From a phage, in sequence record PV357171.2: a stretch of 64,000 nucleotides of DNA; one strand, written 5' to 3'. Shown one piece after another: positions 6,070-35,539 of the stretch. Position 1 is the stretch's first letter; every line of letters starts with the position of its first letter. The notes below the pieces were generated by a model. It searched no databases, was not told the DNA's origin, and saw only the letters and a list, made by a program, of their open reading frames with translations. Both the position numbers and the translations under genes were made by a program.

Positions 6070-6363
6070 ATGAAACGTTATCTTTCTGTCGTGTTCCAAA
6101 CTGGTGGTCAACGCTACACTTATGAATTTCCTGAGTCCTGGAAAATTAAAGAAGGTGATCAAGTTGTTGTATTAACACCTCGTGAAGGCTTCAAAGTAGT
6201 AACGGTTAAACAAGTATTTCCAAAAGATCACGAACCATCTAAGGCTATTCAGTACAAGATGATTCATGGTCTGGTACGAAAAGTACCTAGAACAGAAGTC
6301 GAAGTAGATAAAACTGGGGAAGCTAAATACCAGTATACCTCTTACTTAGATGAAATGATGTAA
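6070..6363 (+). CDS. hypothetical protein
   Basis: 97 aa; GAGAGGGAAACC leader before ATG. Confidence 0.55.
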   Translation: MKRYLSVVFQTGGQRYTYEFPESWKIKEGDQVVVLTPREGFKVVTVKQVFPKDHEPSKAIQYKMIHGLVRKVPRTEVEVDKTGEAKYQYTSYLDEMM

Positions 6364-18968: not shown

Positions 18969-19250
18969 ATGATTACAGAAATTCTCATTGGATTGCTAGT
19001 TCTTACTACACTAGTAGCGATTGGCGGAGTTATTGGGATTGTGAATGCACGAAAAAGCATGGAAAATATGCTTATTACTAATGATGGACTACACCACCGT
19101 TTGCTAGAGCAAGAGCAGGATATTGAATTAGCACAAAGACGCTCGGATATTCTTAAGGAAAAATTAAATAATATAGAAGCAATAGTTGGGAATAATAAAT
19201 TACCTGCTAAAGTAATGCGTACCCAGATAATCACGGAGATTAAAAAATGA
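18969..19250 (+). CDS. hypothetical membrane protein
   Basis: 93 aa; N-terminal transmembrane helix; AGAGGA Shine-Dalgarno. Confidence 0.5.
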   Translation: MITEILIGLLVLTTLVAIGGVIGIVNARKSMENMLITNDGLHHRLLEQEQDIELAQRRSDILKEKLNNIEAIVGNNKLPAKVMRTQIITEIKK

Positions 19251-19492
19251 TGATGTTTATTCTAGCACTTTACCTAATCGTGGTGGGAGTTCTAGTTACT
19301 AAGTATCACACATGGACACCAAAGAATATAGCTAAGGTAGCATTATTTGTTATTCCAGTACCACTTATTATCTTTTCTATGTTACTGGTGATGTTAATTG
19401 GTAGAGTAACAAAGACCGATGTTAAGCGCATTGCTGACGAATTGCAACAGTCCTGTGATATGATTGAGGATATTATTAAAGATGAAACTTAA
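19247..19492 (+). CDS. hypothetical membrane protein
   Basis: 81 aa; two hydrophobic helices; ATGA overlap. Confidence 0.5.
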   Translation: MMMFILALYLIVVGVLVTKYHTWTPKNIAKVALFVIPVPLIIFSMLLVMLIGRVTKTDVKRIADELQQSCDMIEDIIKDET

Positions 19493-33120: not shown

Positions 33121-33855
33121 ATGAATCAAGTTAAAACGAATATTACCCGTAATTTCCCGCATATTTCCCGCGTCATGATTTGGGATCTTGATGGCACTAT
33201 CGTTAATTCATTCCATCGTGTCGCGCCTTGCTTTGATAGCGACGGGAATTTAAATTTAAATAAGTATAAAAATGAGGCTTGCAAACATGATTTAATAATG
33301 CAAGATACTTTATTGCCTTTGGTGGAATATATGCGCCAATGCATGAATGACGCAAATACTTTAAACATTATTTGCACCGCTCGACTGATGAGCAAATCAG
33401 ACTATTATTATTTGCGTAAACAAGGATTGCGCGGGCGTGGTGATAGTAATATCCGTGTATTTTCCCGCGATACACTGCATAAATATTTTGAGGCTGATAA
33501 GGTTAGCGAAATATACCACAGCAAAGACGCAGTTTATAAATCGTATTATTTTGAGCTATTCAAACAACTATATCCGAACGCTGATTTTACAATGATTGAT
33601 GATCATAAAGGTGTATTATCAGCGGCAGCGTCATACGGATTTAAAACGCTGGACGCGCAAGCCGTTAATGATATTCTATCAATCGGCGTGGCATTGATAG
33701 GCGGAACCTTTATTGATGAATCTCTCGATGATGATAATGATTATCAGTTCCTAGCGGACCGATTGAAATTATGTTGGGAAAGTATGACCGAGGAAGAACG
33801 CGCAGAATATAGTTGCAGCCCGCAACAATATATTGAGAAATTAAAAGTTGCGTAA
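33121..33855 (+). CDS. dmp: HAD-superfamily phosphatase, 5'-deoxyribonucleotidase (dmp-like)
   Basis: 244 aa; DLDGT HAD motif I near the N-terminus; location in the pre-early block. Confidence 0.6.
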   Translation: MNQVKTNITRNFPHISRVMIWDLDGTIVNSFHRVAPCFDSDGNLNLNKYKNEACKHDLIMQDTLLPLVEYMRQCMNDANTLNIICTARLMSKSDYYYLRKQGLRGRGDSNIRVFSRDTLHKYFEADKVSEIYHSKDAVYKSYYFELFKQLYPNADFTMIDDHKGVLSAAASYGFKTLDAQAVNDILSIGVALIGGTFIDESLDDDNDYQFLADRLKLCWESMTEEERAEYSCSPQQYIEKLKVA

Positions 33856-34017
33856 TAATTAAAGTTGAAATAGTCACGGTGTGTAATGATAACATGCCGT
33901 GACTATTAGCTTGCTAAGTACCGGGCGGTAATGAGACTCATTCTCATCTGGGGGGCCACTGCACCCACCCACGCGTACGTAATCCAAAGAATTTGGCAAA
34001 AGTCATTTTAGTGCTAA

Positions 34018-34557
34018 TTAACTGTTTAATTGGGCAACGTCTGGTATACTTCCTTTGAACATCTCCTGTATTGCAAAGTCACCATGAAATGTCCTTCTTA
34101 GTAAATTTGCATAATTTACGGCATCTTCTAATCCGCTATAGGGAAAGTACTTAGTAGTACCCCTTATCAGCCCCTGTTTATCATGTAATCTTACCATCCA
34201 CTTCTGAAGTTCTTTATGCCATGTAACATTTAGATAGCCTGATGATGCTCTTGAGATTCTGCCATTATGATTATTCTCTGTAATTGAAGCCTCTCTTAAA
34301 TTTGACCATCTATTATTTAGTTTATTCCTATCTATGTGGTCTACACATTCCTCTGGCCATCTATTCTCCATAATAACAAAAGCTACTTGATGTGCATAAG
34401 CTTTAAACCCTCGATACTTAAGCTGCCTATATCCCCTATTTAAAGTACCTGCTTCTTTACCCTTACGATTGCCTCTTTTCCAGGTAAAAACTCCGGTTTC
34501 GGGATCATAAGCAAATACTTCTTGTATTTCCTGTATGTTTAAATTATTCTTCATCAC
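34018..34557 (-). CDS. HNH endonuclease with AP2-like DNA-binding domain
   Basis: 179 aa; CVDHIDRNKLNNRWSNL HNH core; intact paralog of the frameshifted 18437 gene. Confidence 0.7.
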   Translation of the reverse strand: MMKNNLNIQEIQEVFAYDPETGVFTWKRGNRKGKEAGTLNRGYRQLKYRGFKAYAHQVAFVIMENRWPEECVDHIDRNKLNNRWSNLREASITENNHNGRISRASSGYLNVTWHKELQKWMVRLHDKQGLIRGTTKYFPYSGLEDAVNYANLLRRTFHGDFAIQEMFKGSIPDVAQLNS

Positions 34558-34789
34558 TCACCTTTGCCCGAAATCTCTTCCGCGACGCCCGAGATCCATC
34601 CGACCACTCCCGCTCAAACTCCGCACGTTTCTCGTCAAACTTCCGCTCCCTTTCCGCAATCTTCCGCTCCCTTTCCGCAATCTCCCGCGATACTTCCGCA
34701 GTATACTTACGATGCTTGTTAATAGCCGCAGTCATTCCGAAAACTCCCGCAAGTACCCCGATAATAAAAGCAATTATAATACTAAACAT
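34544..34789 (-). CDS. hypothetical membrane protein with charged repeat tail
   Basis: 81 aa; N-terminal transmembrane helix; REIAERERKIAERERK repeat. Confidence 0.45.
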   Translation of the reverse strand: MFSIIIAFIIGVLAGVFGMTAAINKHRKYTAEVSREIAERERKIAERERKFDEKRAEFEREWSDGSRASRKRFRAKVSDEE

Positions 34790-34976
34790 CTAATTCCCTC
34801 TCAATTTGCAGAATACGGGTACTATCACAACGTTGGAGTTCTACTAATTTTTCTAGAGCAAATTGTTGTTGTTTTACCTGAGCTTCTAGAGTTTTTAGGC
34901 GAACATACGCGTTATAAGAAACAATGAAAGTTGCCCAGACTAGTATTACTATTAGTGTAGCTACTACTTCCATCAT
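34782..34976 (-). CDS. small membrane / coiled-coil protein
   Basis: 64 aa; N-terminal transmembrane helix; ATGA-coupled to neighbours. Confidence 0.4.
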   Translation of the reverse strand: MMEVVATLIVILVWATFIVSYNAYVRLKTLEAQVKQQQFALEKLVELQRCDSTRILQIERELDV

Positions 34977-35080
34977 TTACGTTTCTCCGTTAGTAAAGTT
35001 TCAATTCTAGCTAAGTGATTATCTAAAATACATTGCCCAATAATCATAATTCCCAGTAATGAAATAATTACCCATTCCAT
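34975..35080 (-). CDS. small membrane protein (35 aa), paralog of 35080..35235
   Basis: Begins MEWVII and ends RIETLLTEKRK; GAGGAG Shine-Dalgarno; below track cutoff. Confidence 0.3.
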
Positions 35081-35235
35081 TATTTACGCTCCTCTAATAA
35101 AGTTTCAATTCTAGATAACCTATTACTCAACTGCATTAATTTAACCTCTACTTGGGTTACAGAGGTATCTATTACACGTAAGCCTACAAAGAGAAGTATC
35201 AGTAGGATGAATATGCCAATAATTACCCATTCCAT
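35080..35235 (-). CDS. small membrane protein (51 aa)
   Basis: Begins MEWVII and ends RIETLLEERK; GGTGGA Shine-Dalgarno; track ORF extends to 35265. Confidence 0.35.
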   Translation of the reverse strand: MEWVIIGIFILLILLFVGLRVIDTSVTQVEVKLMQLSNRLSRIETLLEERK

Positions 35236-35363
35236 TAAATCCACCCCGCCATAGCTGCTAACCAAAAACCTACGAAGATTAGGAATAATACAAAACCAAA
35301 TCCGTAAATATTAATCCACGCTTCGTACACTTCTCCGCGTCTGTTCTTTCTTTTGTTTGACAT
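35235..35363 (-). CDS. small membrane protein (42 aa)
   Basis: Internal ATG after AGGAG chosen (track extends to 35426). Confidence 0.3.
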   Translation of the reverse strand: MSNKRKNRRGEVYEAWINIYGFGFVLFLIFVGFWLAAMAGWI

Positions 35364-35539
35364 ATCTTTCCTGCTCCTATAAATATAGTATTTGGAATAT
35401 TTTATAATTTGCGCATAGCCAACCATGCTCGTGATTTCCTAGAAGGGCTTTTCACTTTCTTGCATAGTGTTTTCTGCTAGTACACCATCCAAGAAATAAA
35501 AAATTTAGTTTACTTGGATGTCTTTTTGCTTTATACTAA

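Follow-up and report, generated by a model that had tools for sequence, protein, structure and literature searches.

Phage T5 carries four small genes, T5.159-T5.162, whose products are annotated as 'contains single transmembrane domain' in NC_005859. We describe here the corresponding genes in a stretch of 64,000 nucleotides (nt) from a T5-like phage (Tequintavirus; sequence record PV357171.2), referred to below as the window. On its minus strand, between 35363 and 34544, five packed small genes, o1 to o5, follow the receptor-blocking lipoprotein gene llp. This array is the T5.159-T5.162 cluster of a Markadamsvirinae phage, enlarged by a duplicate of T5.160. The cluster had already been annotated and catalogued and is therefore no discovery; its interest is that of a universal, compact gene set, which is functionally uncharacterised in the literature searched. 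With moderate confidence, we read it as an accessory operon of five single-pass membrane microproteins (35-81 amino acids, aa), which would be expressed with llp, assemble into an inner-membrane complex, and possibly act as a receptor-independent block on entry.

The two clusters are orthologous, with the same order, strand, position (from llp to the right terminal repeat) and overlapping junctions, at identities of approximately 79-91%. o1 (35363-35235, 42 aa) is the homologue of T5.159, o3 (35080-34973, 35 aa) of T5.160, o4 (34976-34782, 64 aa) of T5.161, and o5 (34789-34544, 81 aa) of T5.162. The window differs from T5 by o2 (35235-35080, 51 aa), a lineage-specific paralogue of o3/T5.160 that is not present in T5 itself, by an HNH gene fused at the end of the T5.162 homologue, which also has a 21-nt tandem duplication, and by adjoining llp and receptor-binding genes that are non-homologous to those of T5. 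The same gene order and position were found in T5, HildyBeyeler, NBSal005, MET_P1_100_107, and 26 IMG/VR loci, and in the three phages other than T5 all of o1-o5 are called as genes. The operon region is 89-98% identical to GenBank phages, including MET_P1_100_107, ECOP18, and HildyBeyeler/Bas33, and 306 phage records match it. An earlier sequence-only reading of this DNA had reported at least four minus-strand open reading frames (ORFs) of 35-64 aa; o1-o4 are present as it described them, but it missed the fifth member, o5.

Coding evidence and predicted membrane topology

A chain of five packed, same-strand small ORFs, each with a hydrophobic stretch of transmembrane grade, is unique in the window, where the next longest chain has two members. 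In 100 simulations with an order-2 Markov model, the longest chain was one ORF in 99 runs, and two ORFs in the remaining run. Pooled over 31 related loci, the ratio of nonsynonymous to synonymous substitution rates (dN/dS) was 0.12 for o1, 0.24 for o2, 0.21 for o3, 0.36 for o4, and 0.35 for o5, with 0.17 for llp; all five genes are under purifying selection. Read in the sense frame, o1, o3, o4, and o5 have their highest nucleotide diversity at third codon positions (in o1, 0.232 versus 0.079 and 0.065 at the other positions), and o2, with four sequences only, gave no codon-position signal. That o1-o5 are real genes is close to certain.

The opposite view, namely that the five ORFs are spurious and that the region is non-coding, or encodes a 130-aa antisense ORF (34535-34927, plus strand), or virion proteins, has been largely refuted and is now hardly credible. 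An antisense stop-free stretch of at least 99 codons is indeed kept in 23 of 29 relatives. However, the diversity peak at the sense-frame third position falls on the antisense first codon position, the sense-frame dN/dS is well under 1, the antisense translation is of low complexity and mirrors E/R/K codons, and the simulations never reproduced a chain of five. A virion role is hinted at by the names given in some records and in UniRef (OQ383620, NC_105825, MF402939, PQ462666), where the 35-aa o3 appears as 'tail fiber protein', o4 as 'tail assembly protein', and o1 as 'receptor blocking protein'. Yet a tail fiber of 35 aa is implausible, no tail family was matched in Pfam or PHROGs, and o4 is predicted to be a single helix of 64 aa. 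These names look like propagated annotation errors. As for receptor blocking by o1, only the neighbouring llp matches LPAM_1 and PHROG 1119, and none of o1-o5 does.

One other packed chain of small membrane ORFs is found in the window, at 18969-19492 on the plus strand. It consists of two overlapping ORFs (93 and 81 aa) with hydrophobic helices, and probably represents the T5.029-T5.031 group. In T5, further early ORFs with a single or double helix are annotated, namely T5.020/021, 027, and 029-031.

All five proteins cover whole PHROG profiles (E=1e-14 to 1e-39), and each has a 19-residue hydropathy window of 2.07-3.10. In o2-o5 the helix sits at the extreme N-terminus with no N-terminal basic residue; o2-o4 have an acidic residue at position 2-3, and o4 and o5 have basic residues clustered directly behind the helix. 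The tail of o2 (PHROG 6369, E=1.4e-14) is heptad-patterned and ends in RIETLLEERK. o3 (PHROG 6369, E=1e-24) has an amphipathic tail of 16 residues, and o4 (PHROG 5851, E=2.8e-35) a heptad-patterned tail of 43 residues ending in ERELDV. In the tails of these three, strong hydrophobics occupy 67-89% of the a/d positions versus 8-19% elsewhere. The helix of o5 (PHROG 6447 'membrane protein', E=1.6e-39) contains a conserved GxxxG motif (FIIGVLAGVFG) and is followed by a juxtamembrane NKHRKY and an E/R/K-rich charged helix with no heptad coil. AlphaFold2 predicts a single unbroken helix for o4 (residues 2-63, predicted local distance difference test score, pLDDT, 84), and a single helix for o5 (residues 2-80, pLDDT 68). 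o1 (PHROG 8596, E=6e-31) is built differently, with a basic N-terminal tail, MSNKRKNRRGEVYEAW, containing five K/R, and, at the C-terminus, a transmembrane helix (hydropathy 2.35 at residues 24-42) that closes the protein (FWLAAMAGWI) and carries a small-xxx-small packing motif. The sequence-only reading had assigned to every member an N-terminal transmembrane helix and a short coiled-coil tail; both features are borne out for o2, o3, and o4, but not for o1. Motifs at the membrane boundary are invariant or nearly so, as GQC(I/V)LD-HLAR(I/V)E in o3, and RGEVY and WLAAMAGW in o1.

In the window copy of o5, an in-frame 21-nt tandem duplication (34636-34677) lengthens the charged helix by IAERERK. 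Another in-frame duplication in o5 (EKRA) is carried by a relative, P0066, and this helix seems to be under little constraint in length.

From the distribution of charges, the positive-inside rule predicts an N-out/C-in orientation for o2-o5. These four proteins would thus insert in the inner membrane with the N-terminus outside and the tail in the cytoplasm. o1 looks tail-anchored, probably with its N-terminus inside, and if it inserts as a tail-anchored peptide, all soluble parts of o1-o5 would face the cytoplasm. The GxxxG of o5, the small-xxx-small motif of o1, and the heptad tails could then pack into a hetero-oligomeric membrane complex. We consider a location in the inner membrane likely, and the formation of a hetero-oligomer about evenly balanced.

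Gene overlaps and transcription

Neighbouring genes of the array overlap throughout. The junctions are TAATG between o1 and o2 and between o2 and o3, ATGA between o3 and o4, and ATGTTTAG (8 nt) between o4 and o5, and the last gene runs into the HNH gene over ATGAAGAATAA (11 nt). Each start is preceded by a Shine-Dalgarno-like motif, which for the overlapping genes lies inside the preceding gene. For o1 this is a GGAG approximately 10 nt ahead of the ATG, of which at least GG is kept in all aligned relatives. Linkage by ATGA/TAATG overlaps, as first read from the sequence, is thereby confirmed. Overlaps are found at all junctions of 29 distinct arrays, except in two with a truncated o4, and where o4 was lost or o2 gained they have been re-formed. 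Because the overlaps are preserved across relatives, selection on coupled translation can be argued, and such coupling should yield the proteins in roughly fixed proportions.

Two of the members had been called clear paralogues, and o2 and o3 do share, at the DNA level, a fully identical stretch of 20 nt at the 5' end, which includes the TAATG overlap, and a 37-nt block at the 3' end with 81% identity. The protein alignment requires insertions of 3 and 14 residues. The 20 fully identical nt, at 35063-35082 and 35218-35237, take in the stop/start overlap plus six codons at the start of each gene, and the middles of the genes have diverged, o2 being the longer. The identity of the 20 nt suggests either gene conversion or constraint on the re-initiation site. 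A common origin of all five genes was considered and rejected; profile-profile comparison backs the o2-o3 pair only, as the match of the o2/o3 profile to o4 (68% probability) is confined to the hydrophobic helix. No further paralogues of o1-o5 were found in the window.

The gene llp (35806-35540, minus strand) encodes a Cor/Llp-type receptor-blocking outer-membrane lipoprotein, with a Pfam LPAM_1 lipobox and a match to PHROG 1119 Cor (E=2.2e-26). The array does lie beside it, as had been noted, 176 nt downstream, across a spacer (35364-35539) that includes the Shine-Dalgarno site of o1. A scan of this spacer revealed no intrinsic terminator and no sigma-70-type promoter ahead of o1, its fold z-score (-1.86) was unremarkable, and there was no Rfam match. 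Because the scan showed neither a terminator after llp nor a promoter before o1, o1-o5 are likely co-transcribed with llp, which we infer to head the transcription unit. A T5-type promoter, TTGCTT-17 nt-TATAAT, can be read from the sequence at 35866-35838 on the minus strand, and is annotated at the equivalent place in T5. This strong llp promoter would drive the whole unit as an early transcript.

Published RNA sequencing (RNA-seq) data for Bas33, taken 20 min post infection in two replicates, cover the homologous operon (bas33_0187-0191; PMC13250531, Dataset S1). The counts in replicates 1 and 2 were 2 and 2 for o1, 479 and 334 for o2, 1 and 2 for o3, 1704 and 1243 for o4, 104 and 51 for o5, and 1108 and 531 for llp, from libraries that were not strand-specific and with erratic per-gene values, differing up to 1000-fold between neighbours (PMC13250531). 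This gene-to-gene scatter is probably an assignment artefact, because overlong reads (150 nt, paired) had to be allotted to genes of 108-246 nt. Gene-level values from standard pipelines should not be trusted for such microgenes. Summed over o1-o5, the counts were 2290 and 1632, versus 1108 and 531 for llp, and the summed coverage of the array per nucleotide was about equal to that of llp (PMC13250531). The homologous operon of Bas33 is thus transcribed at about the level of llp. When second-step DNA transfer was blocked, the counts for o1-o5 and llp dropped to 0 or 1 (PMC13250531). The sequence-only reading had said that it would fall if these ORFs were neither conserved in related genomes nor expressed; instead, the array occurs in approximately 440 phage genomes, is under purifying selection, and is transcribed in Bas33.

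At its distal end, o5 overlaps an HNH homing endonuclease gene (34554-34018, minus strand; Pfam HNH_3, E=7.6e-12; PHROG 99, E=7e-52), which supplants the C-terminus that o5 usually has. The pre-early gene dmp (33121-33855, plus strand) converges on the llp/o1-o5/HNH unit. Just past the dmp stop codon, between the converging units and inside the terminal repeat, lies an inverted repeat with 19-bp arms (33869-33907), likely the transcription stop for both; a different but equivalent hairpin is found at the same place in T5, HildyBeyeler, and MET_P1_100_107. Alignment to T5, in which the boundary of the terminal repeat is annotated, places it in the window at approximately 33965. The array, which had been assigned to the genome terminus, therefore stands at the right end of the unique region and abuts this boundary, not the physical end of the genome. 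In T5, its DNA belongs to the segment transferred in the second step and lies on the far right of the unique region.

Distribution among T5-like phages and positional analogues

The conservation and copy-number comparison that the sequence-only reading proposed shows a near-universal core. o1 was detected in 439 phage records by tblastn, o5 in 444, and dmp, at 80% identity or more, in 442. Practically all Tequintavirus and Epseptimavirus phages thus have the core. Among the 29 distinct arrays compared, o3 is present in all; seven lack o4 through an exact cassette indel, which puts a TAATG junction back in place, and two more have it truncated. o2 occurs in 36 of about 440 records only. Thus o1, o3, and o5 form a universal core, and o2 and o4 are optional cassettes. 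o5 is truncated or internally deleted in two isolates.

The array also persists when the receptor-binding/llp module is swapped. T5 and two further loci (L011 and L015) have a non-homologous llp, yet o1, o3, o4, and o5 are kept, and the sequence shared with phages carrying another llp module begins only approximately 45-50 nt before o1.

The C-terminus of o5 changes with the type of HNH insertion, and the 3' end of o5 (34018-34560) is an insertion hot spot for homing endonucleases, also in loci L001, L009, L016-L019, L021, L024, L026, L029, and L031. The HNH genes at the hot spot come in four sizes (157, 165, 178, and 179 aa), vary greatly in their similarity to the window enzyme, and form five junction types. 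Insertions of 157, 165, and 178 aa are accompanied by distinct o5 C-termini, MSESGDKPVDRRSS, KINGKS or KIDGKS, and AKVSDEE, respectively. With the 179-aa HNH gene, which lies 42 nt downstream, o5 keeps its usual tail, EFRPEHRFDDPSMR. The MSESGDKPVDRRSS tail was found too in loci with no detected HNH gene. Locus L021 has an extra HNH gene between llp and o1, overlapping the o1 start.

Searches against Pfam, PHROGs, NCBIfam, and PADLOC returned only uncharacterised PHROG families and sub-threshold matches to generic bitopic proteins. A profile of o5, run against 5.8 billion proteins, retrieved 93 clusters, all of them close relatives with at least 64% identity bar one frameshifted copy; a full HMMER search of 1.84 billion representatives gave five matches, all already among the 93 clusters. 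With the o4 profile, 270 protein clusters were found, the best 120 listed being approximately 80% or more identical to the query, and the sources named among these 120 were all T5-like phages or enterobacterial hosts. No homologue of the array was thus found outside T5-like phages by profile searches with o5 and o4.

Arrays of a similar kind occupy the same slot in other genera. The Providencia phages PR1 and PSTCR5 (Priunavirus) have five tiny membrane peptides of 29-46 aa there, almost pure transmembrane helices, one of which is tail-anchored like o1. In Klebsiella phage IME260 (Sugarlandvirus), two helix-plus-coil proteins (74 and 151 aa) are followed by an HNH gene. As in the window, these genes are on the same strand, packed or overlapping, placed after a gene diverging from the receptor-binding gene and just before the terminal repeat. 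The Providencia and Klebsiella arrays have no detectable sequence homology to o1-o5. In PR1 (locus L033, 6366-6905; KY363465, 107365-107904) the five ORFs, of 29, 30, 42, 44, and 32 aa, carry no annotation; PSTCR5 (86.7% DNA identity) has conserved and annotated copies of all five. PR1 has a further ORF of 25 aa (6280-6357), for which PSTCR5 has no gene call. The slot before the right terminal repeat of Vibrio phage phi 3 (locus L035, 4644-4981) holds direct repeats of approximately 135 nt instead of membrane ORFs; when translated, they give recurring ORF products, MQVITSLITASTRNR..., across the boundary of the terminal repeat.

Candidate functions and known systems

Speculatively, the complex may alter the inner membrane of the infected cell independently of any receptor, and the likeliest form, by analogy with T4 Imm and HK97 gp15, would be a block on DNA entry by T5-like rivals that use other receptors and thus escape Llp. 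We regard such an exclusion function as a tentative possibility. Superinfection exclusion, injection control, and holin/antiholin-like activity had all been proposed from the sequence. Exclusion tied to a particular receptor is unlikely because the array is unchanged beside non-homologous llp modules, and among exclusion roles the sequences would be compatible with the receptor-independent one at the inner membrane. A role in the phage's own injection is unlikely as well, since in T5 the array DNA lies in the second-step-transfer segment. A bolder version would make the array a position-conserved, fast-evolving module of several Demerecviridae genera (Tequintavirus/Epseptimavirus, Priunavirus, and Sugarlandvirus), whose complex closes or blocks the DNA channel formed by the tape-measure protein and so confers receptor-independent mutual immunity beside the receptor-specific Llp, with o2 and o4 tuning which competitors are excluded; we consider this decidedly improbable.

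The main rival to exclusion is that the microproteins modulate a machine of the host inner membrane, such as the envelope-homeostasis system FtsH/LapA/LapB/YhcB, a transporter, the divisome, or a defence effector bound to the membrane, and so serve as host-takeover or anti-defence factors. Models for such an activity exist in the small bacterial membrane proteins AcrZ, MgrB, and MgtS, and in SPO1 gp56, which acts on the divisome. The boundary motifs, invariant or nearly so in 25 of 25 distinct o3 and 26 of 26 distinct o1 sequences from Escherichia and Salmonella phages, fit a conserved partner, and the other small transmembrane early genes of T5 (T5.020/021 and T5.030/031) fit a repertoire for takeover of the host membrane. 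Profile matches to bitopic host proteins point the same way, but all are below the curated cut-offs and reflect a generic helix-plus-coil architecture only: o5 reaches 23.5 bits against the LapA domain (LapA_dom, PF06305; Pfam gathering threshold 28), DivIC is matched at E=0.07 with 13.4 bits (cut-off 28.9), and FtsL at E=0.044 (FtsL_COG5462, 13.4 bits, cut-off 50), which places the proteins outside these families. Furthermore, the predicted cytoplasmic tails have the opposite topology to FtsB, FtsL, and DivIC, no PADLOC or anti-defence match was obtained, and no host partner is known. We consider modulation of the host rather unlikely. Less probable still is that the peptides resemble holins, antiholins or pinholins (or viroporins) and form or regulate membrane lesions that tune lysis timing or membrane potential. 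Their size and single helix recall small holins, type I toxins, and class I viroporins, interchangeable paralogous subunits would suit a homo- or hetero-oligomeric pore, the Providencia analogues consist of little beyond the membrane helix, and there is a match to Vpu, weak and at chance level (E=0.089). However, a holin, antiholin or spanin role is disfavoured because T5's own lysis genes lie far off, the holin T5.041, the endolysin T5.040, and the Rz-like spanins T5.044/045 being approximately 90 kilobases (kb) away (T5.040/T5.041 at 20-21 kb on the T5 map), and because no holin family was matched in Pfam, PHROGs or NCBIfam. No lysis gene adjoins the array, and it appears to be co-expressed with the early llp, at a time when a depolarising pore would harm the phage. 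Spanins of the Rz/Rz1 type were rejected on their own grounds: the tails of 16-58 residues are predicted to be cytoplasmic, o1-o5 have no lipobox, and T5.044/045 are elsewhere.

Several points count against our reading of the array as an accessory operon with a possible block on entry. T5 and BF23 have been crossed by mixed infection, therefore any exclusion would not be immediate. Since o4 and o5 are truncated in some viable isolates, at least these two genes are dispensable in the laboratory. No homology of o1-o5 was detected to any Sie, Imm, holin or other characterised family, and the corresponding slot of Vibrio phage phi 3 lacks an array of this kind. Topology and oligomerisation are predictions from the primary structure alone, and to these points come the unstranded and erratic Bas33 counts. 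The literature searched nowhere mentions T5.159-162 and reports no experiment on their function; HIDEN-SEQ essentiality maps, which include no T5-like phage, Davison's T5 preprint, and the BF23, phiR2-01, and Cit2 papers are silent on these genes, and the published T5 toxicity screen (Qimron) reached T5.002-T5.017 only.

The array, as judged by o1 and o5, is present in essentially every sequenced T5-like phage genome, and many of these phages are potential agents of therapy or biocontrol. With a length of less than 1 kb, a probably non-essential nature, and easy deletion or expression, the cluster is a tractable case for phage membrane microproteins. If receptor-independent exclusion or conditioning of the envelope proves true, it would bear on how T5-like phages are combined in cocktails.

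Among known systems, FtsB/FtsL/DivIC and LapA/YhcB share with the array proteins a helix at the N-terminus with a coiled or charged helix behind it, together with the sub-threshold profile matches given above. In contrast, the predicted orientation is opposite to that of FtsB/FtsL, and the array proteins are much shorter than all of these types. Small holins and class I viroporins, such as T7 gp17.5 and HIV Vpu, are alike in having one transmembrane helix, a size within 35-81 aa, a charged cytoplasmic helix, and helix-mediated oligomerisation, the last being a prediction for the array. They differ in that the array is away from the lysis genes, that T5 already has T5.041, and that expression is probably early.

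T4 Imm, HK97 gp15, and P22 SieA are small inner-membrane proteins that phages encode, do not require, and produce in infected cells or lysogens, traits that the array proteins would share; their exclusion mechanisms are in part described in a review (PMC11436027). Matches to the Imm, gp15/YebO-like or SieA families were absent at E values up to 0.1 in Pfam, 0.01 in PHROGs, and 1 in NCBIfam. Here, four or five coupled microproteins stand in place of one protein, and if the proposed function holds, a multi-subunit type would join the known exclusion proteins. T4 pairs its membrane protein Imm with an envelope partner, Sp, and by analogy llp and the array might do likewise.

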